From the NCBI GenBank assembly GCA_947628105.1, contig CANQYN010000001.1, positions 1 through 36,536 on the forward strand: a stretch of 36,536 bases of DNA. The letters run 5' to 3'. Origin of the DNA: an uncultured Bacilli bacterium (lineage in GTDB: Bacteria; Bacillota_I; Bacilli_A; RF39; UBA660). A program made the position numbers and the translations under genes. Within the stretch, counting starts at the first letter, position 1. Each line of letters starts with the position of its first letter. This document shows, piece by piece, positions 4,973-35,974 of the stretch. The notes below the pieces were generated by a model. It had not been told where the DNA came from. It searched no databases and worked only from the letters and a program-made list of their open reading frames with translations.

Positions 4973-5866
4973 GTGCAAGAAGATTTGATAGAAGAATTTA
5001 TCAATTATTTATTAATCGATAAAAAATATAGTAAAAATACCATTCTTTCTTACCGAGAAGAACTAAAACTATTCTTTTCATACACTTCGAAAGAAGTAAC
5101 GAAAATCGAAAAAGACGATATTGTTTCATACATGAAATACGAAAAAGATTCTGGCTGTCAAGAAAAGACAATTGCTCATTTTATAACTACCTTACGAAGT
5201 TTTTATAAATTTTTAGAAATAGAAGGAATTCAAACAAAAAATCCAATGGAATATATCAGCTTACCCAAAGTGAAAAAACGCTTGCCCAATTATTTAACGA
5301 AAGAAGAGGTGGATTTATTGTTAGATATTCCTCTTACAAATCGCTATTCTTATCGCAATAAAGCGATGTTAGAATTGATGTATGCGACTGGAGTTCGAAC
5401 TAGTGAATTATTAAATTTAAAGATGCCAGATATAAATTTAGAATATGCTTTAATTCGAGTCAATGGGAAAGGTAGTAAAGAGCGACTAATTCCAATGGGT
5501 GATTATGCTCTTTATTACGTATCTTTATATATTGAAAATTATCGAGGTCAATTTTTACAATCAAAACAAAGCGATTATGTATTTTTAAGTAATCATGGAA
5601 CATTAATGACTAGACAAGCCTTTTTCAAAATTATCAAACAATTAGCTCAAGCTAAGCATATTACGAAAGAAATTTCTCCCCATGTTTTACGACATTCTTT
5701 TGCGACTCATATGATCGAAAATGGGGCAGATATTCGTAGTGTTCAAGAATTATTGGGACATTCCAGTGTTTCAACAACTCAAATATATACTAATTTATCA
5801 AATCAATTCGTAGAAGATAGTTATGAGAATTTTCATCCTCACGGGAATAAAAAGGAGGTAATATAA
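4973..5866 (+). CDS. xerD: Site-specific tyrosine recombinase, XerD/XerC type
   Basis: N-terminal core-binding domain (KNTILSYREELKLFF). Catalytic motifs ATGVRTSEL and HVLRHSFATHMIENGADIRSVQELLGHSSVSTTQIYT. GTG start. XerD versus XerC cannot be separated by eye. Confidence 0.8.
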   Translation: MQEDLIEEFINYLLIDKKYSKNTILSYREELKLFFSYTSKEVTKIEKDDIVSYMKYEKDSGCQEKTIAHFITTLRSFYKFLEIEGIQTKNPMEYISLPKVKKRLPNYLTKEEVDLLLDIPLTNRYSYRNKAMLELMYATGVRTSELLNLKMPDINLEYALIRVNGKGSKERLIPMGDYALYYVSLYIENYRGQFLQSKQSDYVFLSNHGTLMTRQAFFKIIKQLAQAKHITKEISPHVLRHSFATHMIENGADIRSVQELLGHSSVSTTQIYTNLSNQFVEDSYENFHPHGNKKEVI

Positions 5867-12306: not shown

Positions 12307-12417
12307 ATGAAAAAAAAGAAAAAGAAAAAAGTAAATATTCAAGCAATTGTCGCAACGATTATATTAGTTGGTGTCGTTTGTAGTTACATAGCCTCTTTAT
12401 TTTTTATTCAAAGATGA
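12307..12417 (+). CDS. Possible 36-aa poly-Lys/TM micro-protein
   Basis: ATG at 12307 preceded by GGAAAGGATGTG. Translation is MKKKKKKKVNIQAIVATIILVGVVCSYIASLFFIQR. Not in the ORF track. Its 3' end overlaps the convergent gpr 3' end by 10 nt. Confidence 0.25.
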   Translation: MKKKKKKKVNIQAIVATIILVGVVCSYIASLFFIQR

Positions 12418-13439
12418 TTTACTTTTTTATGAAGAGCCCGATTGATACCATTTCCTAAAATATCGGCCAAATGTTCTAACTCGAAATCAAATTCTTTTGG
12501 AGTAACGATAAGATTATATCCAATAGGAGTTAAAACTTCAAATAATAATTGTTTTCTTTCTTCTTCGGATAATGTTCCTATTATCCCTAGAAGATTTTTT
12601 TTATCTTCTTGTAAAATTTCAACGTTTTCTTTTAAATAATTGATTTGACTGCTCATCGTTAATTTACTACTTGGTTTTTTATCATATTGTTTATGAAAAG
12701 CATAATGACGGTAAAGATATTTTATAGTATCTGATACGATAGTAAGAGCATCTACTACTGTCGGTACCCCAATAGCGATGACAGGAATACCGATGGTCTG
12801 AAAACTGATTTCTTTTCTTTTATTTCCTACTCCGCTTCCGGGATGAATTCCTGTATTTGATAATTGAATCGTTTTATTTAGACGATCTAACGATTGACTC
12901 GCAAGAGCATCGATAACAATTAAAAAATCTGGTTTAATTTCTTTTACAATTCCTAAAATAAATTGATTGGTTTCAATTCCTGTTACTCCTGTTACGTTAC
13001 TTTTAATCGCCGCAACAGGTCGAAATCCTTCTTCTGGTGTTCCATATTGAAATAAGTGATTTGTTACCAGTATATTTTCAATAGTAGCGGGTCCCAGTGC
13101 ATCAGGAGAAGATTTTTCATTTCCAAGGCCGATAACAAGACAGGAAGCGTCTTGTAAAATTCCTGTTTTTTCTAATAATTTTTTTAAATATTTACTAAAA
13201 ACTTCTTTTACTTTTTCTTTTAAATGATAATCTGTCACATCACTAAATTCAATTGTCGTATAAAATCCTTGTTTTTTTCCTATTTGTTCTTCTCCTTCTT
13301 TTAAAACTTCAACTTCTGTAATTTTAATTCCCTCTTCTTCTTGACATTGGGAAGAAATTCCCACTTGTTTTTCGGTTGTTAATTCGGTAATTAAATCTGT
13401 TCGCAAAGAGAAATTTTTTAAATCGATTGTATGTTCCAT
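12408..13439 (-). CDS. gpr: Germination protease (GPR endopeptidase, spore protease)
   Basis: GPR signatures CLVIGLGNEKSSPDALGP and LIVIDALASQS...TGIHPGSGVGNKR...GIPVIAIGVPTVVD. Lies next to rpsT as in Bacillus. SD AGGTGA. Confidence 0.9.
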   Translation of the reverse strand: MEHTIDLKNFSLRTDLITELTTEKQVGISSQCQEEEGIKITEVEVLKEGEEQIGKKQGFYTTIEFSDVTDYHLKEKVKEVFSKYLKKLLEKTGILQDASCLVIGLGNEKSSPDALGPATIENILVTNHLFQYGTPEEGFRPVAAIKSNVTGVTGIETNQFILGIVKEIKPDFLIVIDALASQSLDRLNKTIQLSNTGIHPGSGVGNKRKEISFQTIGIPVIAIGVPTVVDALTIVSDTIKYLYRHYAFHKQYDKKPSSKLTMSSQINYLKENVEILQEDKKNLLGIIGTLSEEERKQLLFEVLTPIGYNLIVTPKEFDFELEHLADILGNGINRALHKKVNHL

Positions 13440-13873: not shown

Positions 13874-14797
13874 ATGAAGAAGATGATTCATTTTATTCTT
13901 ATTTTATCTATTATTGGAATTATGTATCATTATCGAACTCCTATTTTTCATTTTGTCTATCGACATTTTATCATGGATAAAGAAATTGTAATACAAGATA
14001 GTAACGAATACATAAAATATGAAACCTTTTATTATGTACAAGATACAAATGATTTTGTTCCAAAACAAAAACAAGATTTAATGAATATTTTATATACTAT
14101 TATCAATCGTGGTTGGAAAGAATTTACCTTTTATTGTGATGATAATTACACTTCTTGTAAAGACGATATTACAAAGATGGCATCTGATCAAGAATTATTG
14201 AGTGATATTAATAATTTTGCCCATCCTTTTAATAGTTATCAATCAATCTCTGTCGGTGTCGATTATTTTGGAAAAATAACCATTAAAGTATCCCCTGTAT
14301 ATACGGAAGAAGAAATTAAAAAAATCAATCAAAAAGTTGATGAGCTTTATCCTAAATTAGTATTAGCTAACTTATCAAAAGAACAAAATATCAAACGAAT
14401 TCATAACTACATTATTAATCGTGTTAGATATGACGAACAAAAAACCGTTTATAAAGACGATAAAGGAAATATCAATTATACGAATAAAAGCAATACTGCT
14501 TATGGCCCTCTTTTTAATGGGAAGGCTCTATGTGGTGGATATACCGATTTAATGGCTATCTTTCTAACTAAAATGGGAATTCCAAATTTTAAAGTATCGA
14601 GCGAAAAACATATTTGGAATGCGGTTTATATCAATGGAAAGTGGAAACATTTGGATTTAACATGGGACGATCCAATTGTCAATACAGGAGAAGATATGTT
14701 AAACTATGATTTTTTCTTAATTGATACGAATCAGCTACATAAATTAGATCAAAAACAGCATAACTTTAATCAGAGAGTATATCAAGAATTACATTAA
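13874..14797 (+). CDS. Transglutaminase-like (cysteine protease fold) domain protein, membrane-anchored
   Basis: N-terminal TM helix. Transglutaminase core Cys-His-Asp pattern: ALCGGYTDLMAIFLTKMGIP...EKHIWNAVYINGKWKHLDLTWDDP. Confidence 0.78.
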   Translation: MKKMIHFILILSIIGIMYHYRTPIFHFVYRHFIMDKEIVIQDSNEYIKYETFYYVQDTNDFVPKQKQDLMNILYTIINRGWKEFTFYCDDNYTSCKDDITKMASDQELLSDINNFAHPFNSYQSISVGVDYFGKITIKVSPVYTEEEIKKINQKVDELYPKLVLANLSKEQNIKRIHNYIINRVRYDEQKTVYKDDKGNINYTNKSNTAYGPLFNGKALCGGYTDLMAIFLTKMGIPNFKVSSEKHIWNAVYINGKWKHLDLTWDDPIVNTGEDMLNYDFFLIDTNQLHKLDQKQHNFNQRVYQELH

Positions 14798-14825
14798 AAA
14801 ATCGTGAATTATTCACGATTTTTTA
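14797..14825. terminator. Bidirectional hairpin between convergent genes
   Basis: atcgtgaa (14801-14808) pairs with ttcacgat (14812-14819), extended by A/T runs on both sides. Overlaps the ylbL stop. Confidence 0.65.
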
Positions 14826-15798
14826 ATTTTTCAATAGCTTCTTTGATATTCTTGACAGATATAATATCGATTTTTAAATTTTTTTCTTTTTTCACTTTAA
14901 TGGCTTCTTGATAATTTTTTCCCGCTGGAACTAAAAAAATATTTGCTTTCTTTTTGACGGCTCCCATTAATTTATATTTTACTCCGGCAATTTCGCCAAT
15001 AGTACCATCTTTTTCGATTGTTCCCGTACCAGCAATCATATCGCCTTTTGTAAGATCTTCTTTTGTTAAATAATTATAAATCGTAAGAGTCATAATTAAT
15101 CCTCCGGATCCTCCTGATTCATTTTGATCCATTTTAATTTTAATTGGTGGTTTAGTATGAATTTGATACAAACTAGAAGTTAAAATACCGATTATTTTCA
15201 TTCCATCTTTTTCAATTATATAAGCATATCGTTTTTCTTTTTTTTCATGATTAATAACTTCTATATTGATTCTAGTGCCACTTGGATATTTTTTTATGAT
15301 ATTAGAAAAATCAAGTAATGATGATACTTTTTTATCCATTACTTTATAAATTCTATCCCCTACTTTTAAATTAGTATTGGCTTCTTGAAAAAGATAGGTG
15401 ACATAAATTTCTTGATTATCGATTTGAAGATATTTTTTTGCTTCTTGATATCCATGAATAATAGCATTTTGATTTCCTTCTTGAAGAGACATTTGATTTC
15501 GATATTCGGCTTCTTTTTCACTTTCTCCGTCCGCTACTACATCTTCTTTTTTTTGAAGATCCCAATCGGGATGAATACACGCAAATAAAAAAAGAGGAAT
15601 ATTTGCTTTAATACTACTGACATAAGCCATCTGAAAAGTTCCTCGTGGAACATATTTATCTTGAATATCAACTCGATTACTCGTATCAATTAATCCCCCT
15701 GGAGCTTCGATATAATATGGGATAGGAAAATAAAGAATGATAAAAGCGATTAAAAAAAGAAAAATTACCCACTTATTTTCATTGAACCATTTTTTCAT
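14809..15798 (-). CDS. ylbL: YlbL/SepM-type PDZ domain plus Lon-like S16 peptidase
   Basis: TM anchor, PDZ region (VGDRIYKVMDKKV), and Lon C-terminal-like domain (SGGSGGLIMTLTIYNYL...GTGTIEKDGTIGEIAGVKYKLMGA). Start set at ATG 15798 (MKKWFNENK) with GGGAGG 8 nt upstream. Confidence 0.85.
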   Translation of the reverse strand: MKKWFNENKWVIFLFLIAFIILYFPIPYYIEAPGGLIDTSNRVDIQDKYVPRGTFQMAYVSSIKANIPLFLFACIHPDWDLQKKEDVVADGESEKEAEYRNQMSLQEGNQNAIIHGYQEAKKYLQIDNQEIYVTYLFQEANTNLKVGDRIYKVMDKKVSSLLDFSNIIKKYPSGTRINIEVINHEKKEKRYAYIIEKDGMKIIGILTSSLYQIHTKPPIKIKMDQNESGGSGGLIMTLTIYNYLTKEDLTKGDMIAGTGTIEKDGTIGEIAGVKYKLMGAVKKKANIFLVPAGKNYQEAIKVKKEKNLKIDIISVKNIKEAIEKLKNRE

Positions 15799-15872
15799 CT
15801 TTACTACCTCCCTTGTAATTATATATGATAGAACAGAAATATTTATCATATAATTTAGAAAAGGAGCATTCT

Positions 15873-16823
15873 ATGAAAAAATATTTCAATCTAGTCATGA
15901 TTCTTTTTTTATTATTTTTGACATTTCAAATCTTAACCCTCTCTACCAATGTAATAGAATCGATAAGATTTTCTTTTTCGATTTGGAAAAATAATATTTT
16001 TCCTTCTTTATTTCCTTTTTTTGTACTATCTTCTCTATTAATTCATTATGGATTCATTGAATTTCTCAGCGAATTATTAAAACCATTTATGAGAATTTTT
16101 AAAATTTCTTCTCGCACTTCCTTCATATTATTTATGAGCATGATATCTGGTTTCCCTAGTTCTGCCAAATATACAAGAGAATTATATAAAGAAAATTTGT
16201 TGACAAAAGAAGAAGCTGAAAAAATATTAACATTTTCTCATTTTTCAAATCCCCTTTTCATTTTAGGAACAATTGGATTATTTTTAAATCAAAAAATTGC
16301 TCTTCTTATTTTATTCATTCATTATGGTACCAATTTTATAGTAGGAATTATCTTTCGAAATTTTTATCCTTCCGAAGAGGAACAAAATTATTTTTCTTTA
16401 AAAAACGCAATAACGATAATTCAAAAGAAAAAAAGAGAATCTTTTGGAAACATTTTAACAAAAGCTATTCTAGATAGTATCAATACATTACTGTTAATTT
16501 TAGGAACAATGTCTATTTTTTTAATAATTACTACAATTATCGATTATCATCTTGATATTCCTGCCTATTTTCAATGTATTATCGATGGTTTTTTAGAAAT
16601 GACACAAGGAATAAAATATACCGCCGATCTATCGATTGCTATAAAAATTAAAGCTGTATTGATGACGATGTATTTATCATTTGGAGGAATATCAGTCCAT
16701 ATGCAAACAATCAGTATCTTAAGTGATACTGATATTCGCTATTTCCCCTATTTTGTAGCACGTCTATTACATGCTGGTCTTTCCAGTTTTCTCGTTTATT
16801 TATGCTTTGACATTTTTATTTAA
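15873..16823 (+). CDS. ylbJ: Sporulation integral membrane protein YlbJ (nucleoside-recognition/Gate domains)
   Basis: Multi-pass membrane protein. MISGFPSSAKYTRELYKENLLTKEEAEKILTFSHFSNPLFILGTIG resembles the conserved YlbJ block. Divergent from ylbL, near-syntenic with Bacillus. Start at ATG 15873 with AAAGGAG. Confidence 0.72.
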   Translation: MKKYFNLVMILFLLFLTFQILTLSTNVIESIRFSFSIWKNNIFPSLFPFFVLSSLLIHYGFIEFLSELLKPFMRIFKISSRTSFILFMSMISGFPSSAKYTRELYKENLLTKEEAEKILTFSHFSNPLFILGTIGLFLNQKIALLILFIHYGTNFIVGIIFRNFYPSEEEQNYFSLKNAITIIQKKKRESFGNILTKAILDSINTLLLILGTMSIFLIITTIIDYHLDIPAYFQCIIDGFLEMTQGIKYTADLSIAIKIKAVLMTMYLSFGGISVHMQTISILSDTDIRYFPYFVARLLHAGLSSFLVYLCFDIFI

Positions 16824-18837: not shown

Positions 18838-18897
18838 ATTTTTAGGATAAATACTAGTCCTAAATGAAGAAAAGAATAAAAGGAGTTGACATTTCTT

Positions 18898-20481
18898 ATG
18901 TTAAAAGTTTTTGACTATGAAAAAATGCCTGTTGTGGAGATTGTCAATAATATATTAGTCGATGCTGCCAAACGTGATGCCAGTGATATTCATTTTGACC
19001 CACAGGAAGAGTATTTAAAAATTCGTATTCGTATCGATGGAGATCTAAAAGATTACGCGGAAGTTCCAAACACAATTAAAAGAAATATGATTACCCGTAT
19101 TAAGATCATTAGTGGAATGAATATTACCGAATCAAGATTACCACAAGATGGAGCCATTAAAACTACCATTGAAGATGTCAATCTAGATTTACGTGTATCT
19201 TGCCTTCCTACTAATTTAGGAGAAAAAATAGTTATCCGTATCTTAGACTATTCAATGAGTCAAGCAGGGCTTGAAACATTAGGGTTTAGTCCTAGTAATT
19301 TTGAAAAAGTCGCTCGTATTATTTCCGTTCCTAATGGAATCATTTTAGTTACAGGAGCTACCGGTACTGGTAAATCGACTACCGTATATTCTATTTTACA
19401 AAAATTAAATCGAGAAGAAACCAATATTATTACCGTTGAAGACCCGATTGAAATGAATATTGAAGGAATTAACCAAGTACAAGTAAATAGTGAAATTGGA
19501 CTTACTTTTGCGGCTTCTTTGCGTTCTATTTTACGTCAAGACCCTAACGTTATAATGATTGGGGAAATTCGTGATAACGAAACTGCTCAAATTGCTGTTC
19601 GTGCCTCTATTACAGGACATATCGTACTATCTACTATCCACACCAATAACTCATTAAATACGATTGAACGTCTCTTAGATATGGATGTAGAACGTTATTT
19701 ACTTGCTTCTGCACTAGAAGGAATTATTTCTCAAAAATTAGCTCGTCGTCTATGCCCTAAATGTAGAAAATTAAGACCTACTAACGAATATGAGAAAGAG
19801 TTATTTAAAAATGTCTTAAATAAAGATGTTAACGAAACTTATACAAATGTTGGGTGTGAAGAATGTACAAACGGATTTAAAGGACGTATCCCTATCCATG
19901 AAGTATTGGTCGTAACTCAGACAATTAAAGATGCGATTAGTAACAATGTTAGAAAAGAAGAATTAAGAAAATTAGTATATACAGAAGATGTAACTACCAT
20001 GTTACAAGATGGAATGGAAAAAGTAATTGAAGGAGAAACTACTTTTGAAGAAATTTTGAAATTAATCGAATTAGATGAAGATGAAAGTACAGCTGGTGAA
20101 GATCGTTCAAACTTACAAAATTCTATCGAATTTACTAAATTATCCCAAGAAGCAGCGAAAGCTACTTTGAATAAATTAGAAGAAGCAGAAAAAAAAGATC
20201 GAAATGAAAAGTCACCAACAAATTCTACCTCAAATAATATTTCAAATCCAGCAGTAAATTCACCAACTTCATCAAGTACAACCCCATCAACGAGTTCTAC
20301 CACAAATAATACTTCAACTTCTACAGTAACTTCACCAAGTACAACAGCACCAACAAGTTCTACTATAAATAATATTTCAAATTCTACGGTAACTTCGCCA
20401 AATACAGCAACTCCACCAACAAATCCTATTCCAATTCCACCACAACCAACAATTAATACAAATGAAAAAGCTTCTCAATAG
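18898..20481 (+). CDS. GspE/PilB/ComGA-family type II/IV secretion ATPase with a C-terminal low-complexity tail
   Basis: Walker A GATGTGKSTT, Asp box ITVEDPIE, Walker B VIMIGEIRD, His box GHIVLSTIHTN, tetracysteine CPKC...GCEEC. No N1 domain, as in ComGA. About 135 extra C-terminal residues. Start at ATG 18898 downstream of AAAGGAG. Confidence 0.9.
   Translation: MLKVFDYEKMPVVEIVNNILVDAAKRDASDIHFDPQEEYLKIRIRIDGDLKDYAEVPNTIKRNMITRIKIISGMNITESRLPQDGAIKTTIEDVNLDLRVSCLPTNLGEKIVIRILDYSMSQAGLETLGFSPSNFEKVARIISVPNGIILVTGATGTGKSTTVYSILQKLNREETNIITVEDPIEMNIEGINQVQVNSEIGLTFAASLRSILRQDPNVIMIGEIRDNETAQIAVRASITGHIVLSTIHTNNSLNTIERLLDMDVERYLLASALEGIISQKLARRLCPKCRKLRPTNEYEKELFKNVLNKDVNETYTNVGCEECTNGFKGRIPIHEVLVVTQTIKDAISNNVRKEELRKLVYTEDVTTMLQDGMEKVIEGETTFEEILKLIELDEDESTAGEDRSNLQNSIEFTKLSQEAAKATLNKLEEAEKKDRNEKSPTNSTSNNISNPAVNSPTSSSTTPSTSSTTNNTSTSTVTSPSTTAPTSSTINNISNSTVTSPNTATPPTNPIPIPPQPTINTNEKASQ
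20212..20454 (+). repeat. Imperfect tandem coding repeats (Ser/Thr/Pro/Asn-rich, about 21-26 aa units)
   Basis: NSTSNNISNPAVNSPTSSSTTPSTSS / TTNNTSTSTVTSPSTTAPTSS / TINNISNSTVTSPNTATPPTNP, then IPIPPQPT. Visible at the DNA level as recurring aataat...tctac(a/g)gtaacttc(a/g)cca units. Confidence 0.65.
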
Positions 20482-28280: not shown

Positions 28281-29954
28281 CTATTTCATTAATTGTTCTT
28301 CTAAATGGTTTATTTCATCAGAAATTGACTTTTTCTGTTTTTGGGTTAAATCAGATATTTTGATTGCCTTATCAATAGTATCTTTAATATTTGATTTTTT
28401 TGTCACCGTTCCATTAACCTCGGCCTTAATATCGATATAAGTAAAATCTTTTTGCTTTACTTTTACTTGTATCAATTCTTTATTTTTAAAATCATCGTCT
28501 TCTTTCAATAATTCCGTTTCCACCTTAAATTGTAATGTTATATTTTGATAATCAATATTAAAATCAAAAGTGACATAATCATCTTTTTGAATAATCTTAA
28601 CATTTCCTACTTTTTTATCTTTATCATCGGTAAAATCAACGGTCGTTTCATCTCCGTTTGTCTTAACAAGAGCACTAGCAATAAGACGATCTTGATAATA
28701 CAAATTAATCGTATCATTTTTTTCATCAAGGTAAACTAATTTAATATTATCTTCTTCACTTTGAATGTCTAATTCATATTTTAATTCTTTACAAGTAATG
28801 GTATTGGTATATACCGTAAATAAAATTTTATCTTTTCCCCAATTTTTATTATTCCATTTTAAATCTTTTAGTTTAATACCATATTTTTCTAATATTTCCT
28901 CTAATTTCTTATCGCTTTTCAAATCACTTACGACATTTTTAAAAAATTCATTTCCATTTTTATTATCTAATACTAAAGTATTTTTTTTCACCTTAGTCAT
29001 TTTTCCTTGAAGTTTTATTTTCGTATTCTCTGTTGTAAAATAATCTTCTTTTAAATTTCTTTTCAAAGCTCCTATTACATAATGATAAATATAGTCTAAA
29101 TTATCATAAAGTCCAGAATTTCCTACTTTAAATTCTTTTATAATAGCATTCGAATCTTCTAATTCAATATAATTATCTAACGCATTACGATAACGAACGT
29201 AATTTTTTTCATTTTGATTAATTAATCGAACATCAAAAAGTTCTTTATCATGTAATTTTCCATTCATCTTTAAAAATGTTTTTTTGCTTTTTGATTCATT
29301 CATTACCTGCAATTTAATATTACTATCATTTAAATTTTTTACTAGTTTAGCATAAGGTTTATATTCTGAAAATTGTGAAAAAGTATCTAATAAGTCAGAA
29401 TGAATGTCAAAATTAATTGTTCCATCTAACGTGTAATCAGATCCTATTTTATTTCCAAATGTTTGTTGATCAAAAACTCCATCAAATTTTTCTGACAAAC
29501 TAGTAATAGCATGAGACATAATTCTTTTTGGATTCATAAAATAAAATTTATATATACTAAAGCCAATCAATAAAACGGCTAACAAAACAAAAAGCGGAAA
29601 TAAAATTTTTCTAAATTTTGATCTTTCTTTTTCCTTTGTAAATAACATTTCTAACTGATAATCTTTTTTTGTTTCATCAGTGCTTTCTTTTTCTTTTGGT
29701 TTTGTTTCGATATTTTCTACTTTCTTTTTTTGTAGTGCATCCTTCTTTTGAGATTCTGTACTTTTTACTACCTTTTTTGTCGCCTTATTTTCTTCCTTTA
29801 CAGTTGCTTGTTTTTTAGAAGGATTTTTTTTAGAATTTTTATTTTTTACAGTAGTTGATTTAGAACTAGATGCTTTGGTATTATTCTTACTAGACGTTTT
29901 TTTCGAATTTGTTTGTTTTTTTCTTTCTATTTCCTTTTTATTTTCTTCTTTCAT
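28281..29954 (-). CDS. Hypothetical membrane-anchored protein with a Lys-rich N-terminus and a large extracytoplasmic domain
   Basis: About 115 aa of basic low-complexity sequence (KKTSSKNNTKASSSKSTTVKNKNSKK...), one TM helix (ILFPLFVLLAVLLIGFSIY), then about 420 aa with no recognised motif. ATG 29954 follows AGGAG by 8 nt. Confidence 0.55.
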   Translation of the reverse strand: MKEENKKEIERKKQTNSKKTSSKNNTKASSSKSTTVKNKNSKKNPSKKQATVKEENKATKKVVKSTESQKKDALQKKKVENIETKPKEKESTDETKKDYQLEMLFTKEKERSKFRKILFPLFVLLAVLLIGFSIYKFYFMNPKRIMSHAITSLSEKFDGVFDQQTFGNKIGSDYTLDGTINFDIHSDLLDTFSQFSEYKPYAKLVKNLNDSNIKLQVMNESKSKKTFLKMNGKLHDKELFDVRLINQNEKNYVRYRNALDNYIELEDSNAIIKEFKVGNSGLYDNLDYIYHYVIGALKRNLKEDYFTTENTKIKLQGKMTKVKKNTLVLDNKNGNEFFKNVVSDLKSDKKLEEILEKYGIKLKDLKWNNKNWGKDKILFTVYTNTITCKELKYELDIQSEEDNIKLVYLDEKNDTINLYYQDRLIASALVKTNGDETTVDFTDDKDKKVGNVKIIQKDDYVTFDFNIDYQNITLQFKVETELLKEDDDFKNKELIQVKVKQKDFTYIDIKAEVNGTVTKKSNIKDTIDKAIKISDLTQKQKKSISDEINHLEEQLMK

Positions 29955-30009
29955 TTTTCTCACTCCTATAATAATTATATCACATAATATGACAAAATAA
30001 GATAAATTT

Positions 30010-30037
30010 CAAAAAAAAGACAAAATATTTTGTCTTT
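30010..30037 (-). terminator. Strong rho-independent terminator at the native 3' end of the split amidase gene
   Basis: Perfect palindrome aaagacaaaat/attttgtcttt (30016-30037), followed on the minus strand by an 8-T run. Overlaps the stop codon at 30036-30038. Confidence 0.7.
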
Positions 30038-30050
30038 AAGGAATATATAG

Positions 30051-30229
30051 CATTTGTCCGATTTGTAAATCATTACTCTCTAAACGATTAAAACTTTTTA
30101 ACTCCGTTGCCGTAATGCCAAATTGATTGGCAATTTTCCACAAACTATCTCCTGGTTTTACAATATATGTTTTTTCTGCTTCTTTCGAAGATGTTGTCGG
30201 AATTATTAACATTTGTCCGATTTGTAAAT
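30051..30229. repeat. Pair of perfect 20-bp direct repeats inside the LysM-coding fragment
   Basis: catttgtccgatttgtaaat occurs at 30051-30070 and at 30210-30229 (encoding LQIGQML in two LysM modules), 159 bp apart. Confidence 0.8.
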
Positions 30230-30304
30230 TATCACTCATTAAATTGTTAGCTCGTTTAATATCATTAATCGTTGTGTTAAATTGTTTTGCTAAATTCCAT
30301 AATG

Positions 30305-30313
30305 TATCCCCTG
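30305..30313. repeat. Left junction core of the integrated element (att core copy 1)
   Basis: TATCCCCTG is identical to the 9-mer at 34920-34928. It falls in the codon phase GGG GAT A of the LysM reading frame on the minus strand. Confidence 0.75.
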
Positions 30314-30404
30314 ATACATTTTTTATGTCATATTTTTAAATAAAAATATTTCATTTTTCTTTATTGATATCATAAAGCTTTGAACACAAATTATTTCAAA
30401 TTCT

Positions 30405-31058
30405 TTATATAGATATTATTAAATGATTTCGTTTCATTAATTTCAAAGTTTTAACTAATTTATTATTAAGTCTTGGCCTTGTAAATTGCTCTTCTAATAT
30501 TAATTTGCTATTTTTATATCTGTCATAGGCAAATTGATAATCTTCGTTTTTTATTGCTTGGACACAAGGATTCACTACATTATCATAAATATATTTATAA
30601 ATGCTAAAGCTATCTTCAAGTTCATTAATTGCTTCTACTATGATAGGAGCTATTTTATAATAATGTTCTATATCTTCATCTGAAACAAAATTATTTCTAA
30701 ACCATCTTAATATTGTTAATTCTTCACAATTATCATCAAAATTTTCTTGCATATGTATCATACATGCACTTGTTAAATAGCATCCACCATTATCTTGAAC
30801 TTCACCTATCGTTGGATTAGACGAGCTATTACTCTTATTTCTACTATAATCCGGATCTTTTCCCTTGTTATAATCATCATTATTTTCCCATCTAGCATGT
30901 GAATGTCCACCATCACCATTGTTAACATATCTATTTACTGAACCCCTTTTTTCATAACTGGTATATTGTAAATTAGAATCATTATAATCTTCGTATCGAT
31001 CTACATCATAGCTGGCATAACCCCAATCTCTATTATTTCCGCCTTTACTATTAGACAT
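30405..31058 (-). CDS. Hypothetical 217-aa protein: disordered Asn/Asp/Gly/Tyr-rich N-half plus a Cys-motif helical C-half
   Basis: Start at ATG 31058 (MSNSKGG) with AAGGAGGG 7 nt upstream, overlapping the upstream ORF by 8 nt. The C-half reads GGCYLTSACMIHMQENFDDNCEELTILRWFRNNF...EHYYKIAPIIVEAI. Confidence 0.6.
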   Translation of the reverse strand: MSNSKGGNNRDWGYASYDVDRYEDYNDSNLQYTSYEKRGSVNRYVNNGDGGHSHARWENNDDYNKGKDPDYSRNKSNSSSNPTIGEVQDNGGCYLTSACMIHMQENFDDNCEELTILRWFRNNFVSDEDIEHYYKIAPIIVEAINELEDSFSIYKYIYDNVVNPCVQAIKNEDYQFAYDRYKNSKLILEEQFTRPRLNNKLVKTLKLMKRNHLIISI

Positions 31059-31347
31059 GAAATTTCCCTCCTTTATCAAACATAGAATTATACTCAATAG
31101 TTCCATCTTCATATATTATAAATTTTTCTTCCCCTATTTTTTCAAGCGTTAATATTAATTTAGTAACAATAGATTCTTTATCGCTATCATTTTTTTTGCT
31201 TAATAAACGATAGGCTTTTAAATCTTTATTGAAACTATCAAATAATTCTTTATTTTCTTTTGTTGCATCATAATAAGATTCTAATGCTAATGACCCTTTA
31301 AAAATAAATTTATCGTAGTTATTTTTATTAATTGAAAAATTATTCAT
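31051..31347 (-). CDS. Hypothetical 98-aa protein, translationally coupled to the 217-aa ORF
   Basis: ORF with AAAGGAG 11 nt upstream. No motif recognised. Its stop overlaps the start of the next ORF. Confidence 0.5.
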   Translation of the reverse strand: MNNFSINKNNYDKFIFKGSLALESYYDATKENKELFDSFNKDLKAYRLLSKKNDSDKESIVTKLILTLEKIGEEKFIIYEDGTIEYNSMFDKGGKFHV

Positions 31348-31375
31348 ACATTTAAAAACTCCTTTCTTATATAAA

Positions 31376-31404
31376 ATTATAATCTTTTTTTATCAAAAAA
31401 ACAA
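31376..31404 (-). promoter_or_regulatory. Candidate sigma-A-type promoter for the 98-aa/217-aa pair
   Basis: Minus strand: TTGTTT (31404-31399), 17-nt spacer, TATAAT (31381-31376), about 30 nt upstream of the 98-aa ORF. Confidence 0.4.
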
Positions 31405-31449
31405 TTTTATTCGTTACTGTCTATAAAAATTTTATTTCTAAATACCTTT

Positions 31450-33045
31450 TTATGTAGTATTTTTAAATGTAAATATAATATCTATCCTCTTATCTTGATA
31501 AATATAAATTTTTTCAACTAAATTTATTATTAATTCTCTTGTTGGCTCCTCTATTGATAAAAATTCATTAATGTATTTTTTTATTTGCTTATTATCTACT
31601 TTATTTGAAGCTATTTGTTCACTTTTAAGATTATCAATCCTCTTTTTATTATCATCTATTTCACTTTTTATATTTTCACTTATTCTTAAATATTGTAATT
31701 CATCAATGACACCTTTTAACCTATCCATATAAGTTTTATCTAAACTTTCAGTCAGTTTATTATTGGTAATTTTGAAATGTTCTATCTGTTTTTTAGTTTT
31801 TAAAGTTTTGTCTTCAAATTTTATATTTCCAATAGAATCTTTTATTTTGTTTTTATCAAGATATTTATGACAAACATCCTTAACATTATCTAAAATTACT
31901 TTTTCTAATGTTTCATAATTATTTGTATGTGTAGTACAAACATGATACTTTGAATATGTTCTGTAATAATCGCAAGTAGTATAACTTCTTCCTGTTTTAT
32001 TTTGATATCTTATTGTTATTCGATGCTTACAATCTCCACAGTATAAAAGGCCATCTAATAAATAAAATCTTTTCTTCTCTGGTCTTTTTACATTTTTAGG
32101 TAGTAGTGTTTGAACATAATTAAAAGTATCTCTATCTATTATCGCTTCATGAGTATTCTTAACAATTATATAATCATTAGGACTATTTTTAACTGTCTTC
32201 TTTAATTTATAATTAATCTTTTTAGTTTTACCTTGAACTGAATCTCCTACATAGATTTGATTAGTTAAAATTGCTTTTACAGTTGTATCAACCCATACAC
32301 CTTGCTTTTGTAAAATACATTTACTCTTGCACTTTGTATTCCAAACATAATTATAATAGGATGCTGGAGTCTTAATTTTTCTTTTGGTAAGTTCTTGTGC
32401 TATATAATGATAGGTATTCCCTTGAAGTGCTAAATCAAATATTAACTTAACAGTCCTAGCTTGTTCTTCATTTATTATTAAATGATTTTTATTATTTGGA
32501 TCTTTTATGTACCCAAAAGGACATCTTCCAGACACATATAAACCATCTTTCATTCTTGAATGTAGACTAGTTTTAACTTTTTTTGAAATATCTTTAGCAT
32601 ACATATCATTCATTATTGCTTTAAAAGGCGCTATATCATTATTGGTATTATCTATGAATGTATCTATCCCATCATTAATAGCAATATATCTTATATTATT
32701 GTTTGGAAAGTATTTTTCTATTAATTCTCCTGTTCCAATATAATCTCTACCTAATCTTGACATATCTTTCGTAATAATCATATTGATTTTACCAAATTCA
32801 ATATCTTTCATCATTCTTTTAAAAGCAGGTCTTTCAAAATTAGTTCCTGTAAACCCATCATCTACATACTCATCTATAACATTATAATTATTTTCTTTAA
32901 CATATTGATTAAGTAAACTTCTTTGACTGACGATACTATCAGATTCGTGTGTTAAATCATCTCTTGATAATCTTATATAAAGTCCTACATTAAAACTATT
33001 ATTTACGATTCTCAATTCATACTCCTTTCTTTTTGGAAGTATCAT
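31450..33045 (-). CDS. Large serine recombinase (resolvase/invertase catalytic domain, recombinase domain, zinc ribbon, coiled coil)
   Basis: Catalytic region VGLYIRLSRDD...SQR...YVDDGFTGTNFERPAFKRMM...IITKDMSRLGRDY. Zinc ribbon LYCGDCKHRI...TCDYY...HVCTTH. C-terminal LVEKIYIYQDKRIDIIFTF resembles the DUF4368-type end. A TTG at 33015 with AAAGGAG 7 nt upstream is an alternative start. Confidence 0.93.
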   Translation of the reverse strand: MILPKRKEYELRIVNNSFNVGLYIRLSRDDLTHESDSIVSQRSLLNQYVKENNYNVIDEYVDDGFTGTNFERPAFKRMMKDIEFGKINMIITKDMSRLGRDYIGTGELIEKYFPNNNIRYIAINDGIDTFIDNTNNDIAPFKAIMNDMYAKDISKKVKTSLHSRMKDGLYVSGRCPFGYIKDPNNKNHLIINEEQARTVKLIFDLALQGNTYHYIAQELTKRKIKTPASYYNYVWNTKCKSKCILQKQGVWVDTTVKAILTNQIYVGDSVQGKTKKINYKLKKTVKNSPNDYIIVKNTHEAIIDRDTFNYVQTLLPKNVKRPEKKRFYLLDGLLYCGDCKHRITIRYQNKTGRSYTTCDYYRTYSKYHVCTTHTNNYETLEKVILDNVKDVCHKYLDKNKIKDSIGNIKFEDKTLKTKKQIEHFKITNNKLTESLDKTYMDRLKGVIDELQYLRISENIKSEIDDNKKRIDNLKSEQIASNKVDNKQIKKYINEFLSIEEPTRELIINLVEKIYIYQDKRIDIIFTFKNTT

Positions 33046-33181
33046 TGAATAGTATCTTCTTATTTAAAATATTATAATTCATATATTGCTTTTCTAATTC
33101 TATTTTTAATACATTCGTTATTATGTCATTTAAAGATTTACCATTTTCTTTAAATTTTAAATTAACATTATATTTAACCAT
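33017..33181 (-). CDS. Possible 54-aa ORF coupled to the recombinase gene
   Basis: Read manually: MVKYNVNLKFKENGKSLNDIITNVLKIELEKQYMNYNILNKKILFNDTSKKKGV*. GGAGG lies 11 nt upstream. The stop (33019-33017) sits 1 nt before the alternative TTG start of the recombinase. Below the track length cutoff. Confidence 0.35.
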   Translation of the reverse strand: MVKYNVNLKFKENGKSLNDIITNVLKIELEKQYMNYNILNKKILFNDTSKKKGV

Positions 33182-33611
33182 AGAGTTTCATACCTCCAAT
33201 AAATTCTATGGCTTTAAAATTTAAATAAGTAATATTATTTAGATAATAATACCCCTAACAATATTACTTGTTATCATAGTCCTCCTGATTGTTTATTCCT
33301 CGATTAAATATTTTTCCTCTGAAATTAAATCTTCTCATTTATATTATCTTCTTTTCACGATACATGATACCCCCCACTAAAAAGAAGAGTCAAGTCATTA
33401 AGTATAGAAAGTTTTGTCTATCATCCTATAATACTTGCAAATGCATTAATTTATAAAAAAGCAGGATAAGATGTTTACACATCAATACTAAACTAATCCT
33501 TATTTTATAAGAGTTGATTATGGTGCTATTCTTATTTTGTACTTACGAAATTCATTCTACTTTGTAGGTTGATATAAAGAATAAAGTAAATAATATCAAT
33601 ACATTAGATCA

Positions 33612-33660
33612 CAAAAAATCATCCTAATTTATAGTTTTCGCTAAATTTTATAGGATGATT
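33612..33660 (-). terminator. Terminator after the kinase-like gene
   Basis: atcatccta (33618-33626) pairs with taggatgat (33651-33659), loop 24 nt. On the minus strand it is followed by TTTTTTG. Confidence 0.5.
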
Positions 33661-33678
33661 ATTTTTTACTAGTTAAGG

Positions 33679-34830
33679 TCATATATAATTATTTTTTGTA
33701 TAAATTTCATATTTAGAATACAAGTCATTTAAAAATCTAGTGGAATTTTCATTTTGTTCTGATTCTTCTATTTTTTTTCCTATTGTTCTTATCATCGTTT
33801 CAGTAAATTTAGATTCTAAATCATATTCATAATCATATTCATCTTGATAATTACACTTATTAATTGAATTTTTTTTATGATATTTCCATATTTCCATTAA
33901 ACAAAATAAATTTGAATCATTTCTAATATCATTAACTTCTACACTCCAAAACTTTTCACCATTATTAGTTATTTTATCGATAATTTGGTCTACCACTATT
34001 TCATATAATTCATCATAAACCGGATAATCTTCTTCTTCTAATTTAAATAAATCTTTCTTGACAACTCCTTGTTCCATTAAATATTGTTTTAAGCCAGCAT
34101 CTTTATCAAACAAATAAAATTTTTCATATTTTTCAAAATTAGGAATTACAGATTTAATTGCAAGAAGAGTCTTTGCTTCTATAGAATACTCCAATAAGTC
34201 TTTTTTTGATTGTTGATCTAGTGATAACTCCTCATTATATTTAAGTGTCGATGCAATTTGTCTAGGTTTAGGTGTTACAAATTTTAATGCTTTAAACAAT
34301 TTAATAGGATTATTTTCATCAAATACTTTTTCTACATCATAATGCAAAAAATCTATAAACCAAAATCCAGTTTCTTCATCGTAAAATAAATTTTTAGGTT
34401 TAGCCTCATACCCCATTTCATATAACATACAACCATCACTAATAAGTTTTTTATAATGTTCAAATGGAATGTTATAAACACGATTTAAATCTGAAATTAC
34501 CGTATCATATGAAACACCATATTTCGCCATAGAAGCGCAATTTTTTCCTTTGCATTTTTCTTGTAATACATAACAAACATCATCACTTCCTTCAATTGTC
34601 CTCATAACAGAAATATGCTTTGGAGTGTTAACACCTTTTTGAATTTTTTGATTAACCCCTTCCATAACCCTCTCTTCACAATCACGTGCTCGATGATTAT
34701 ATTTAACATATTTTAACGGAAGCATATATTTTACTAAAACAACATCCCCAAAATCAAAGCATTGACTTCCTCCATCACTTATATTTTGTTTGTTTTTAGA
34801 TTGCTCAATTGCATATTTTATATCTATCAT
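33679..34830 (-). CDS. Protein-kinase-like fold protein (atypical catalytic loop) with a helical C-terminal domain
   Basis: Gly-rich loop plus Lys (ISDGGSQCFDFGDVVLVKY), hinge-like VCYVLQEKCKG, catalytic-loop-like GYEAKPKNLFYD, DFG-like WFIDFLHYD. SD AAGGAG 8 nt upstream. TGTTATAAT extended -10 at 34858-34850. Confidence 0.5.
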   Translation of the reverse strand: MIDIKYAIEQSKNKQNISDGGSQCFDFGDVVLVKYMLPLKYVKYNHRARDCEERVMEGVNQKIQKGVNTPKHISVMRTIEGSDDVCYVLQEKCKGKNCASMAKYGVSYDTVISDLNRVYNIPFEHYKKLISDGCMLYEMGYEAKPKNLFYDEETGFWFIDFLHYDVEKVFDENNPIKLFKALKFVTPKPRQIASTLKYNEELSLDQQSKKDLLEYSIEAKTLLAIKSVIPNFEKYEKFYLFDKDAGLKQYLMEQGVVKKDLFKLEEEDYPVYDELYEIVVDQIIDKITNNGEKFWSVEVNDIRNDSNLFCLMEIWKYHKKNSINKCNYQDEYDYEYDLESKFTETMIRTIGKKIEESEQNENSTRFLNDLYSKYEIYTKNNYI

Positions 34831-34893
34831 ATCGTTTACTCCTTTTTTTATTATAACATATTTATAATCATAAATATCATTATTTAAATATTA

Positions 34894-35871
34894 CTACCCA
34901 TTATTCCCCATAAAAATTCTATCCCCTGCTTTAACTGTATAAGAAGTTGTAGATAAAAAGGGTGACTCTCCTGATTCTGAAAGTAAAAGGACTTGACCAA
35001 CATAAATATCATCATTTGTTAAATTGTTCAATATTTTTAAATCCGATACACTCATATTAAACTGCTTGGCAATCTTATATAAACTATCCCCCGCTTTGAC
35101 TGTATAAGTAGTTTCAGTAACAATATTTTCTTCTTTCATAGGTATTTGTAATACTTGACCAATCGATAAATTATCAGACGATAAATTATTCAATTTTTTT
35201 ATTTCATCAACCTTCGTATTAAATTGCTTTGCTAGTTTCCACAACGTATCTCCATTTTGTACTACATATGTATTCCCCGTTGAAGGAACAGTTGGAAGAG
35301 AATATCCATTTTCTTGTAAAATAGCTCTTATTACTGCATCTACATATTTTTTATAATTTTTCTGAATACGGTCAAGATCTGAAGCATTATCAATAAATCC
35401 ATACTCTACAATAACAGGTTGTGTTTTTCCGGTATTTCTTAAAATATAATAATAATCTAAATTAGGATTAGAAGTGGATCTTCTTTGATAATATGATCGA
35501 GTTATTTGTCCTTCTTTTCCAATTTCAGATAAAATACTACGAGCAAGATTATCATTATTACGAAGAGCATATATCACCTCTGCTCCTTGTGCACCTTTAA
35601 TAGCAGAACCGGCCGCATTAATATGATTAGAAACTACAATCACATTCGGAGAATCCCCAAACGCATTTAATACTCGTTTTACTCGTTCTGTTGGATTTAC
35701 TGTTTCATCAGTAGAACGTACTAATTTTACTGGAATTCCTAATTCCTTAAAACGATCATACATATATTTTGAAATTTGTAAAGTTAAATCTTTTTCTTTT
35801 ACTCCATTCCCTACTGCACCAGAATCCGCTCCCCCATGTCCAGCATCTACAACCACCTCTAAATTATTCAT
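34894..35871 (-). CDS. N-acetylmuramoyl-L-alanine amidase (Amidase_3) with LysM modules, 3'-truncated by the insertion
   Basis: Amidase_3 motifs [36 protein letters not shown]. Two complete LysM modules ([17 protein letters not shown]...IGQVLQIP; [17 protein letters not shown]...VGQVLLL) and a third cut after KAGD. ATG 35871 follows AGAGGTGA. Confidence 0.88.
34920..34928. repeat. Right junction core of the integrated element (att core copy 2)
   Basis: TATCCCCTG is identical to 30305-30313. It lies at the point where the third LysM module of the amidase stops making sense (…SYTVKAGD|RIFMGNNG*). Confidence 0.75.
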
Positions 35872-35974
35872 CTTTTTCACCTCTAATATAACGTATGACA
35901 TGATAATCTTTTGGTGATATAAGAAAATTATTATTTACTAAATAAAACTTCAAATATTGCATTATTTTTTTCAA

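Follow-up and report, generated by a model that had tools for sequence, protein, structure and literature searches.

We analyzed a 36,536-nucleotide (nt) stretch of DNA, here called the window, from the genome of an uncultured Bacilli bacterium of the RF39 lineage (assembly GCA_947628105.1, contig CANQYN010000001.1, positions 1 to 36,536). In the window, a gene for a cell wall amidase with LysM modules is split by 4.6 kb of DNA that carries the gene for a large serine recombinase (LSR). Our reading, to which we assign a probability of about 0.8, is that the inserted DNA is a mobile element bounded by recombinase attachment (att) sites, that it is a composite of two units, and that the amidase gene could be restored by its precise excision.

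On the minus strand, the open reading frame (ORF) at 34894-35901 specifies a protein that has an Amidase_3 domain followed by two LysM modules and then a third, which breaks off after ...SYTVKAGD and runs into RIFMGNNG and a stop codon. This is the interrupted state of the gene, and it is present in the protein collection searched below as a protein of 335 amino acids (aa) from a 36,536-bp contig, of which the window is thus the full length. The likely start is the ATG at 35871, which has GAGGTGA ahead of it; the 5' segment from there to the break (34920-35871) comprises Amidase_3, the complete modules LysM 1 and LysM 2, and half of LysM 3. About 4.6 kb away, after a stop codon and with no start codon in frame, a LysM frame reads KYDIKNVSGD TLWNLAKQF...QIGQMLYIP and ends at the stop codon at 30036-30038. 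This 3' segment (30036-30304, minus strand) supplies the rest of LysM 3, all of LysM 4, and the stop; both segments were defined by ORF, Pfam, and alignment to orthologues. Where the amidase gene natively ends, a hairpin followed by a run of T's (30012-30037) resembles an intrinsic terminator (fold, -7.3 kcal/mol; z = -2.5). A generic terminator scan omitted this hairpin because its stem is A+T rich, and generic scans for promoters and terminators were uninformative in DNA of 24 to 27% G+C.

The same 9-mer, TATCCCCTG, is found at both break points (30305-30313 and 34920-34928). On the minus strand it reads C AGG GGA TA, and it has the identical codon phase at the two breaks (GGG GAT, Gly-Asp). 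The window holds three copies of this 9-mer versus 0.08 expected from shuffled sequence. Excising 30314-34928, which joins 35871..34920 to 30304..30036, gives a 1,221-nt ORF (a multiple of 3) that encodes a 406-aa protein, in which Pfam finds Amidase_3 (E = 1e-32) and four LysM stretches (E = 1e-72). The amidase lacks a signal peptide. An earlier reading of this DNA, made without database searches (the sequence-only reading), had proposed the split gene with its LysM frame resuming 4.6 kb on, the 9-mer in equal codon phase, the 406-aa product with four LysM modules, the terminator, and an LSR between the two halves; all of these stood when we reread the sequence, joined the halves, folded the terminator, and ran Pfam. 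It is reasonable to suppose, from the catalytic domain and the two LysM modules that it keeps, that the truncated product retains activity. The third copy of the 9-mer (14289-14297), which falls within an opposite-strand gene for a transglutaminase-like protein, lacks att-like arms and is probably coincidental.

We searched a collection of 5.8 billion proteins with the joined amidase. Two uninterrupted 405-aa orthologues, P0023 and P0029, were 73% identical to it with 100% query coverage, and both have the same architecture of Amidase_3 plus four LysM modules. As the sequence-only reading had anticipated, they cross the predicted junction without a gap (TYTVKSGDTLWKIANQ versus SYTVKAGD|TLWNLAKQ in the joined protein). 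On the contig that encodes P0023, the downstream genes follow in the order seen in the window: a large protein of unknown function, a DAGK_cat (diacylglycerol kinase family) gene, and an ORF of ∼184 aa. Many related genomes have the amidase uninterrupted, and among the uninterrupted homologues the number of LysM modules varies without any element being present. In the window, the gene directly downstream of the amidase (28281-29963, minus strand) encodes a 560-aa protein with a Lys/Ser-rich N terminus, a hydrophobic segment, and no family match; at locus L001 the equivalent position is held by a 455-aa protein of unknown function.

The LSR is encoded at 31450-33045 (minus strand) and has 531 aa if it starts at the ATG at 33045 or, more likely, 521 aa from the TTG at 33015. 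Pfam identified the catalytic resolvase domain (PF00239; residues 22 to 168; E = 9e-21), the Recombinase domain (PF07508; E = 5e-22), and Zn_ribbon_recom (PF13408; E = 4e-10). The protein thus has the domain order of an LSR, with the catalytic domain N-terminal and the Recombinase domain and zinc ribbon C-terminal to it, and the catalytic serine motif, YIRLSRDD, is present. It matches the integrases of PHROG 95 (E = 7e-104). Among characterized enzymes, TndX is 36% identical to it over 96% of its length, and the catalytic domain of TnpX matches with an E value of 2e-29. The best NCBIfam scores were those of CcrB (102 bits) and CcrC (91 bits), with cutoffs of 900, and of XisF (75 bits), with a cutoff of 375. 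Pfam gave no match to DUF4368 in the recombinase.

Scanning one genome per GTDB species, we found relatives of this recombinase in at least 511 species-representative genomes. The best 80 are 74 to 91% identical to the window enzyme, and all of the top 120 clusters of recombinase relatives are 82 to 91% identical to it. The hosts of the best 80 are almost all metagenome-assembled genomes from the gut that are labeled uncultured Bacilli, Tenericutes, Mycoplasmatota, or Erysipelotrichaceae, plus a few Clostridia; the three complete or near-complete chromosomes among them are 1.19 to 1.53 Mb long. Both ends of the element could be located at 51 loci, each in a different species, with element sizes of 2.85 to 7.9 kb. 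The layout is fixed: the 5' part of the host gene, attL, variable cargo, an ORF of ∼50 to 67 aa, the recombinase, attR abutting its stop codon, and the 3' part of the host gene. All elements are co-oriented with the host gene, as are nearly all of the cargo genes, and no inverted or shuffled arrangements were seen among the elements examined. Excision in silico restored an in-frame LysM module (Y.V..GD|(S/T)L(W/Y).IA) at 49 of the 51 loci.

Aligning these loci defined the att sites. The left junction, ...GGNGATA(C/G)AATTTTTATGGGGAATAATGAGTA, is kept in nearly all related loci, and because it is conserved, the truncated host proteins nearly always end in GD(T/R)IFMGNNE and a stop codon. Integration adds a fixed 8-residue tail to the truncated host protein; in the window the tail is RIFMGNNG, which is encoded, together with its stop codon, by the P' arm of attL, GAATTTTTATGGGGAATAATGGGTAG (34894-34919, minus strand). 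The right junction is ...TTTAAAAATGTTACATAA|AAATTGTATC(A/T)GGNGAT..., and in canonical relatives the recombinase stop codon is 10 nt from the core (..TTTAAAAATGTTACATAA|AAATTGTATCWGGNGAT). Because attR directly adjoins the recombinase stop codon, one att arm consists of the final recombinase codons. In the window the attL core is at 34920-34928 and the attR core is at 30305-30313; the 9-mer common to them holds the inferred GG crossover.

The attP site reconstructed from 49 loci is CATAAAAATTGTATC-aGGn-GATACAATTTTTATG, a 15-nt inverted repeat around a nonpalindromic GG. The repeat can also be written CATAAAAA(T/A)TGTATC-NGGN-GATA(C/G)AATTTTTATG, with the left arm overlapping the last recombinase codons and the stop; in the window version there are two mismatches between the arms. 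The reconstruction has the properties by which LSR sites are recognized, namely, an attP of ∼50 bp, imperfect inverted repeats, a nonpalindromic center, and hybrid attL and attR sites. The GG at the center of symmetry lies in the Gly codon of the LysM motif GD(S/T)LW, and strand exchange probably takes place there. Judging by the family alignment, the 9-mer is no target duplication; it is the stretch that attL and attR have in common around this probable GG crossover dinucleotide. That the 9-mer is a chance repeat or a target site duplication is ruled out by the 0.08 copies expected and by the overlap of hybrid att sites around GG across the family; part of the identity of the two copies stems from the conserved LysM codons. 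Excision from the window would produce the junctions ..TCTTATACAGTTAAAGCAGGGGATACATTATGGAATTTAGC.. (attB) and ..ATGACATAAAAAATGTATCAGGGGATAGAATTTTTATGGGGAATAATGGG.. (attP).

These alignments also indicate what the element targets. The attachment site is the DNA that encodes ..Y.V..GD(S/T)LW.., and every LysM module has an attB-like sequence. Insertions were seen in the first, second, third, fourth, or later LysM module of the host gene, and about one-third of the targets are LysM proteins with no detected Amidase_3 domain, whose N termini resemble those of other wall hydrolases. Because the module varies and because nonamidase LysM genes are hit, the target is the LysM-coding motif generally and not the amidase gene.

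The 4.6-kb insert of the window, which the sequence-only reading had taken to be a serine recombinase element, is indeed one, but it is not a single element; it is a composite of two units with a decayed internal attP and a recombinase remnant. The stop codon of the window recombinase (31450) is not followed by LysM sequence. What follows, ACATAAAAAGGTATTTAGAAATAAAATTTTTATAG..., is a decayed attP without the central GG, so that the junction of units 1 and 2 (31405-31455, minus strand) reads ACATAAAAAGGTATTTAGAAATAAAATTTTTATAGACAGTAACGAATAA versus the attP consensus ACATAAAAATTGTATCaGGnGATACAATTTTTATGGGGAATAATGAGTAA. At the far end of the element (30314-30350, minus strand), local alignment detected roughly 35 nt of the 3' end of a recombinase gene (ATTTAAAAATATGACATAA plus AAAATGTATC), and attR has this remnant as its P arm. 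Unit 1 thus consists of a kinase-like cargo gene, a 54-aa ORF, and the recombinase, and unit 2 consists of two ORFs without a recombinase of their own. Loci L041 and L066 hold composites with the same series of recombinase, internal attP, cargo, recombinase remnant, and attR, and their internal attP sites are better preserved than that of the window. In a further locus, L109 (UMJX01012991.1, 100-1380), an unrelated ORF runs out in a remnant of a P arm; next come a perfect attP and a clear, 382-aa homologue of the 383-aa cargo protein of the window, which aligns with it from the first residues on. Since this homologue follows an intact attP, the 383-aa cargo unit occupies two different array positions. 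L109 resembles an array junction between recombinase-less cassettes.

Two routes to such composites can be envisaged. Recombination between the attR of one element and the attL of another in a neighboring LysM module would leave an attP in the chromosome and delete the intervening host DNA. Alternatively, two circular elements might fuse before integration, as has been proposed for composites of the staphylococcal cassette chromosome (SCC) (PMC5595907). By either route a redundant recombinase could be lost while its 3' end was kept, because that end belongs to the att site.

The cargo gene of unit 1 (33679-34830, minus strand) encodes the 383-aa protein, for which Pfam, PHROG, PADLOC, and NCBIfam gave no match. 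Its homologues, of ∼380 aa, fall into 144 clusters, none with a recorded Pfam domain and with only one source name ("hypothetical protein"); some of these homologues sit outside such elements. The AlphaFold2 model has a pLDDT confidence score of 94, and its best PDB fold matches are protein kinases, at weak levels (E values of about 1e-4; TM scores of 0.2 to 0.37). Invariant D/N and IDF-type residues in the family fit a kinase-like catalytic core, and the protein may have a protein kinase-like fold. About 20 nt upstream of its start is an extended -10-like box, TGTTATAAT (34850-34858, minus strand), which is possibly a vegetative promoter of the cargo gene's own; with this box ahead of the start, expression of the cargo may be independent of the amidase promoter. 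The two genes of unit 2 form a module that recurs in other species. The first (31051-31347, minus strand) encodes a 98-aa protein that is a singleton in sequence and had no match in Pfam, PHROG, or NCBIfam. The second (30405-31112, minus strand) encodes a 235-aa protein with a weakly CFI-box-CTERM-like C-terminal region, which scored 23 bits against NCBIfam NF041770, below the cutoff of 40, and so is not a member of that family. Its own family (cargo cluster 5) occurs at eight loci, each time preceded by an ORF of 98 to 135 aa, and these partners fall into separate sequence clusters. The pair is upstream of the recombinase at some loci and in a recombinase-less downstream unit at others.

Across the family, the 232 ORFs of the elements fell into 104 sequence clusters, and only the recombinase and the small ORF upstream of it were universal. 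From these matches, the cargo is widely variable and enriched in families of the anti-phage defense and toxin types, which include RhuM (PADLOC candidate PDC-S05), an AbiEii-type AAA_21 protein, DpnII endonuclease with a D12-class methylase, AIPR, Fic, and AAA_15 with an OLD-type TOPRIM (AriA- or AbiL-like). Other matches were to radical SAM proteins, a kinase-phosphatase-RNA ligase protein, GNAT acetyltransferases, tRNA synthetases, and an ABC transporter.

Sequence comparisons indicate that the related elements are horizontally mobile. Each of the elements at L021 and L025 encodes a cargo protein of 1,354 aa; the two share 98.8% identity along all 7.9 kb, with no detectable similarity in their 5-kb flanks. 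Likewise, those at L033 and L046 are 89.7% identical over their full length within flanking DNA that has no similarity, and L032 is an A+T-rich element within the G+C-rich DNA of Eubacterium sp. CAG:180.

The small ORF of the window (33017-33181, minus strand) encodes a 54-aa protein (MVKYNVNLKFKENGKSLNDIITNVLKIELEKQ...), and a single nucleotide separates its stop codon from the TTG at which the recombinase probably starts. An ORF with the same conserved start (ATGGTTAAATAC...) precedes the recombinase at 72 of 75 loci, and most of its variation is at third codon positions. The protein had no match in Pfam, PHROG, or NCBIfam; from its position and conservation it is a candidate recombination directionality factor or regulator, and the element offers no other candidate for a directionality factor. 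Upstream of it is a control region (33182-33260, minus strand) with a hairpin-like repeat, TAATATTAC, CCATAGAATT (33202-33211), and the ribosome-binding site GGAGGT, which is nearly invariant at 72 loci. A -10-like box in this region, CATAGAAT, resembles the CATA class recognized by mother cell sigma factors (sigma-E/K). A palindrome just upstream of TAATATTAC (33215-33260, minus strand) has a counterpart at the equivalent position in about 70 loci; its sequence is specific to each subfamily and its symmetry is kept (e.g., GGTGTattattACACC and ATGTTTtaAAACAT), and it could be a terminator for the cargo or an operator. An alternative small ORF on the opposite strand was rejected as an antisense artifact.

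A second class of elements splits the same gene. At 11 or more related loci (L013, L022, L024, L034, L035, L039, L045, L080, L081, L082, and L089), a distant LSR (30 to 40% identity) interrupts the catalytic domain of the amidase at ..NHINAG|GGxGAE(V/I)IYA, about residue 92, and in some genomes the amidase gene is split twice. This second element is polymorphic within a species, because L009, where the gene is intact, and L039, where it is interrupted, are 99.5% identical downstream of the break.

The interrupted gene may be a sporulation gene. In B. subtilis, the sigma-K consensus is AC-16/17-CATA---TA. Starting 44 nt upstream of the amidase ATG is the motif ACCAAAAGATTATCATGTCATACGTTA (35889-35915, minus strand; AC-N16-CATAnnnTA), which as AC-N16-CATACGTTA fits that B. 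subtilis consensus. A motif of this type was present at -42 to -45 in 14 of 20 independent amidase loci with intact 5' ends, and four more had near matches there; the sequences upstream of these 20 loci are otherwise diverged. With a background frequency of 5.5e-5 per nt, the binomial probability of this occurrence is about 4e-43. At L040, L065, and L075, the target is amidase-like but has DAYRGGDD in place of DAGHGG and so may be a catalytically altered paralogue; its LysM modules are kept, and so is the sigma-K-type promoter (as a one-base variant at L065). The window also encodes the spore germination protease GPR (12408-13439, minus strand; NCBIfam, 340 bits, with a cutoff of 120) and a YlbJ-like sporulation membrane protein (15825-16823, plus strand; below the cutoff), from which we conclude that the host forms endospores or did so until recently. 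Genome-based predictions of spore formation have been published for RF39 and related uncultured orders (PMC10868615). CwlC and CwlH of B. subtilis are sigma-K-dependent lytic amidases of the late mother cell, and Clostridioides difficile also has sigma-K-dependent amidases (PMC517825, PMC3789822). With less confidence than we have in the element itself, we suggest from the promoter motif that the interrupted amidase is a sigma-K-dependent, CwlC-like mother cell lysin. Such a lysin would not be needed in vegetative cells, and its gene may therefore be a low-cost landing site.

The events we propose are as follows. Integration of the element at a LysM motif would yield attL and attR with a common core and would truncate the host protein. 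The recombinase, alone or together with the product of the small ORF, would then recombine attL with attR, thereby excising the 4.6 kb and restoring the 406-aa amidase. Excision may be tied to sporulation, as it is for the elements skin, SPbeta, and gin, or it could equally be sporadic; coupling to sporulation is plausible, but on balance we lean against it.

Several points weigh against this reading or parts of it. Neither an excision product nor an allele with an empty site was found in the protein collection, where the best intact homologue was 73% identical, and for the joined proteins of other loci no intact match from the same species was found among the 120 proteins retrieved. The exact attP pattern occurred in no viral contig of IMG/VR and in one metagenome contig, that of L109, where it lies inside an array and not in a circle. 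The ratios of nonsynonymous to synonymous substitution (dN/dS) of promoterless 3' fragments, 0.13 to 0.34, are not proof of selection after insertion; in-frame restoration is to be expected from any recent precise insertion by an LSR, and so neither is decisive. The element has no transfer genes that would account for its horizontal movement. TndX and TnpX, the nearest characterized relatives of the recombinase, are not known to need a directionality factor, and so that role for the small ORF is a guess. As to sporulation, the -10-like box and TAATATTAC of the control region are 12 nt apart in one subfamily but 18 nt apart in a second, and with two spacings the region can be assigned to neither sigma-E nor sigma-K. 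Lastly, the sigma-K-type motif was present in only 2 of 21 nonamidase LysM targets, and thus the element family is not restricted to mother cell genes.

Of the other explanations, the strongest is that the element integrated once and has never been usefully excised, so that the truncated amidase is tolerated and the 3' fragment is a young pseudogene. LSR integration is normally irreversible without a directionality factor. This one-way character, the failure to find an empty site or a free circle in the collections searched, the decay of the internal attP, and the catalytic domain retained by the truncated product all fit a dead end, and restoration in silico is to be expected after any recent precise insertion. 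We nevertheless consider a dead end unlikely, if far from negligible, because in the window the recombinase, the small ORF, both att arms, and both halves of the gene are intact, and the halves are intact in 49 of 51 other species as well. In addition, an element of the related second class is present in one genome and absent from another of the same species, and elements that are 98.8% identical in unrelated flanks must leave one genome to reach another. The same evidence of recent horizontal transfer, together with the turnover of cargo, argues against a domesticated, vertically inherited switch that, like skin, would delay the amidase until late in sporulation. The sigma-K-type promoter and the spore genes of the host are what such a switch would predict; so are the conservation of the recombinase (74 to 91%) while the catalytic domain of the amidase diverges (39 to 80%) and the existence of a second recombinase element that splits the same gene in other species. 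But insertions occur in different LysM modules and in nonamidase genes, most of which lack the sigma-K motif, and many related genomes have an unsplit amidase, all of which make a dedicated switch very improbable.

It is also improbable that the element serves as a device for variation, by which reversible insertion, excision, and recombination would alter the number of LysM modules and with it cell separation or autolysis. There are attB-like sequences in every module, insertions range from the first to the fourth or later module, and the first of the composite routes proposed above would delete the modules between two insertions; yet all elements are co-oriented with the host gene, with nothing inverted or shuffled, and LysM number varies among homologues that have no element. 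That the insert is a prophage remnant or an assembly artifact is hardly credible. The PHROG 95 match carries the label "integrase," and two close relatives of the recombinase are on contigs called viral by IMG/VR, but this integrase was the only phage-type match that PHROG gave for the five proteins of the element, the recombinase relatives in GenBank phages are at most 34% identical, and the attP pattern is absent from IMG/VR, which together rule out a prophage remnant. The element is only 4.6 kb long, and the same architecture and att sequences were assembled independently in more than 50 species by many studies.

Beyond the mobile, excisable composite element itself, a broader interpretation is that the family is a platform for cassettes. 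A conserved LSR would use every LysM module as a dock, short cargo units with a P arm at one end and a P' arm at the other, many of them recombinase-less, would be stacked, exchanged between species, and moved in trans, the preferred dock would be a sigma-K mother cell lysin that is rebuilt by excision in the dying mother cell, and a second recombinase family would do likewise with a motif in the catalytic domain of that gene. We regard this interpretation as tentative and rather doubtful in its entirety; if true, it would give uncultured, reduced-genome, spore-forming gut Bacilli and some Clostridia a system akin to integron cassettes or SCC units.

Among known systems, the element is closest in behavior to gin and SCC, and it is not a member of SCC, of the TndX/TnpX clade, or of the prophages or phage satellites. 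Like gin, which splits gerE in Bacillus cereus ATCC 10987 and encodes GirC and GirX, it is small, nonviral, and driven by an LSR, it splits a coding sequence, and its precise excision would rebuild the gene; both also have 9 bp common to the two junctions and an inverted repeat in the att site (PMC5595907). gerE is a late mother cell gene, and the gene interrupted here looks like one. The recombinase family, target, and host differ, and unlike gin, the element in the window targets a repeated domain motif, so that there are several attB sites per gene, and its family has highly variable cargo. Sporulation-specific excision and a directionality factor have been proven for gin; for the window element they are only guessed at. 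Skin (in sigK) and SPbeta (in spsM) of Bacillus and their Clostridioides counterparts (SpoIVCA, SprA/SprB), grouped with gin and vfbin as sporulation gene-intervening elements, are likewise serine recombinase elements within mother cell genes that are restored by excision (PMC4191935, PMC5499854, PMC5025042). However, those are 14- to 135-kb prophages or prophage-like elements with one target gene each, whereas the window element is 4.6 kb without phage genes and its family ranges from 2.9 to 7.9 kb.

With SCC (CcrAB/CcrC) the family shares interchangeable cargo, the lack of its own transfer genes, tandem composites with internal att sites, and pseudoelements that lack a recombinase and rely on that of a neighbor. 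Such composites and internal att sites, seen in the window and at L041, L066, and L109, are a resemblance in behavior and not membership. The window recombinase is not a Ccr enzyme, because its NCBIfam scores are ∼100 bits against cutoffs of 900, and SCC inserts at the 3' end of rlmH (orfX) without disrupting the protein, whereas the present element splits its target in the middle of the coding sequence; the host clades also differ. TndX (of Tn5397) and TnpX (of Tn4451), the closest characterized relatives by sequence, both come from elements that insert at short conserved sequences inside genes. They use a GA crossover dinucleotide; Tn4451 is similarly small but carries a mobilization gene, and Tn5397 is conjugative. 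In contrast, the center here is GG, DUF4368 was not detected, and there are neither conjugation nor mobilization genes. Members of the TndX/TnpX clade mostly carry DUF4368 (Durrant et al., PMC10083194).

Three more distant comparisons can be made. In heterocysts of Anabaena, the serine recombinase XisF removes the fdxN element from a gene in a terminally differentiated cell, and nif-region genes of heterocysts are split by several elements, much as the amidase gene of related species is split by two different ones here; XisF is distant in sequence (75 bits against a cutoff of 375), and the phylum and developmental program differ. Integron arrays offer an analogy only: they too have promoter-proximal, co-oriented units, variable and often defensive cargo, and recombination sites between the units, but they depend on the tyrosine recombinase IntI and a folded single-stranded attC, neither of which is present here. 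As for the amidase, CwlC resembles it in being an Amidase_3 protein without a signal peptide, but B. subtilis CwlC has SPOR-type repeats as its wall-binding domain, whereas the amidase here has LysM.

Elements of serine recombinases that split genes are thus known, and what sets this family apart is the use of a repeated domain motif as the target, the modular and defense-rich cargo, and the wide spread in an uncultured clade. We found no description of the family in full-text searches on serine recombinases with LysM or "intervening element," on RF39 with serine recombinases, or on LSRs with defense or cargo, and LysM is not mentioned in the main text of a large recombinase atlas. The element family is apparently undescribed.

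So far, split genes with excisable recombinase elements have come from a handful of cultured Bacillus and Clostridioides strains. The family extends the phenomenon to a large uncultured gut group (under the labels Bacilli, Tenericutes, and Mycoplasmatota) with genomes of roughly 1.2 to 1.5 Mb where complete. Its targeting logic, in which a protein domain motif is recognized at the DNA level, provides many landing sites per genome in any LysM-bearing host. With compact att sites (∼50 bp, with a GG core) and the abundance noted above, the family may serve as a source of integrases, and its cargo amounts to a collection of small accessory and anti-phage modules whose functions are in many cases unknown, with the kinase-like protein and the two-gene module of the window as examples. 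If excision is tied to sporulation, the elements would be the first genetic evidence on the developmental program of organisms whose sporulation has only been predicted.

Three other genes of the window deserve mention. A 297-aa tyrosine recombinase with a Phage_integrase domain and an N-terminal SAM-like domain is encoded between uvrC and a phosphoglucomutase family gene (4973-5866, plus strand); it is probably a housekeeping enzyme of the XerC/XerD type and not part of a mobile element. The gene at 14809-15849 (minus strand) encodes an S16 protease similar to SepM/YlbL. At 18886-20481 (plus strand) is a gene for an ATPase of the PilB/GspE/ComGA type, from a type IV pilus or from a competence system; elements without transfer genes could conceivably move by DNA uptake.

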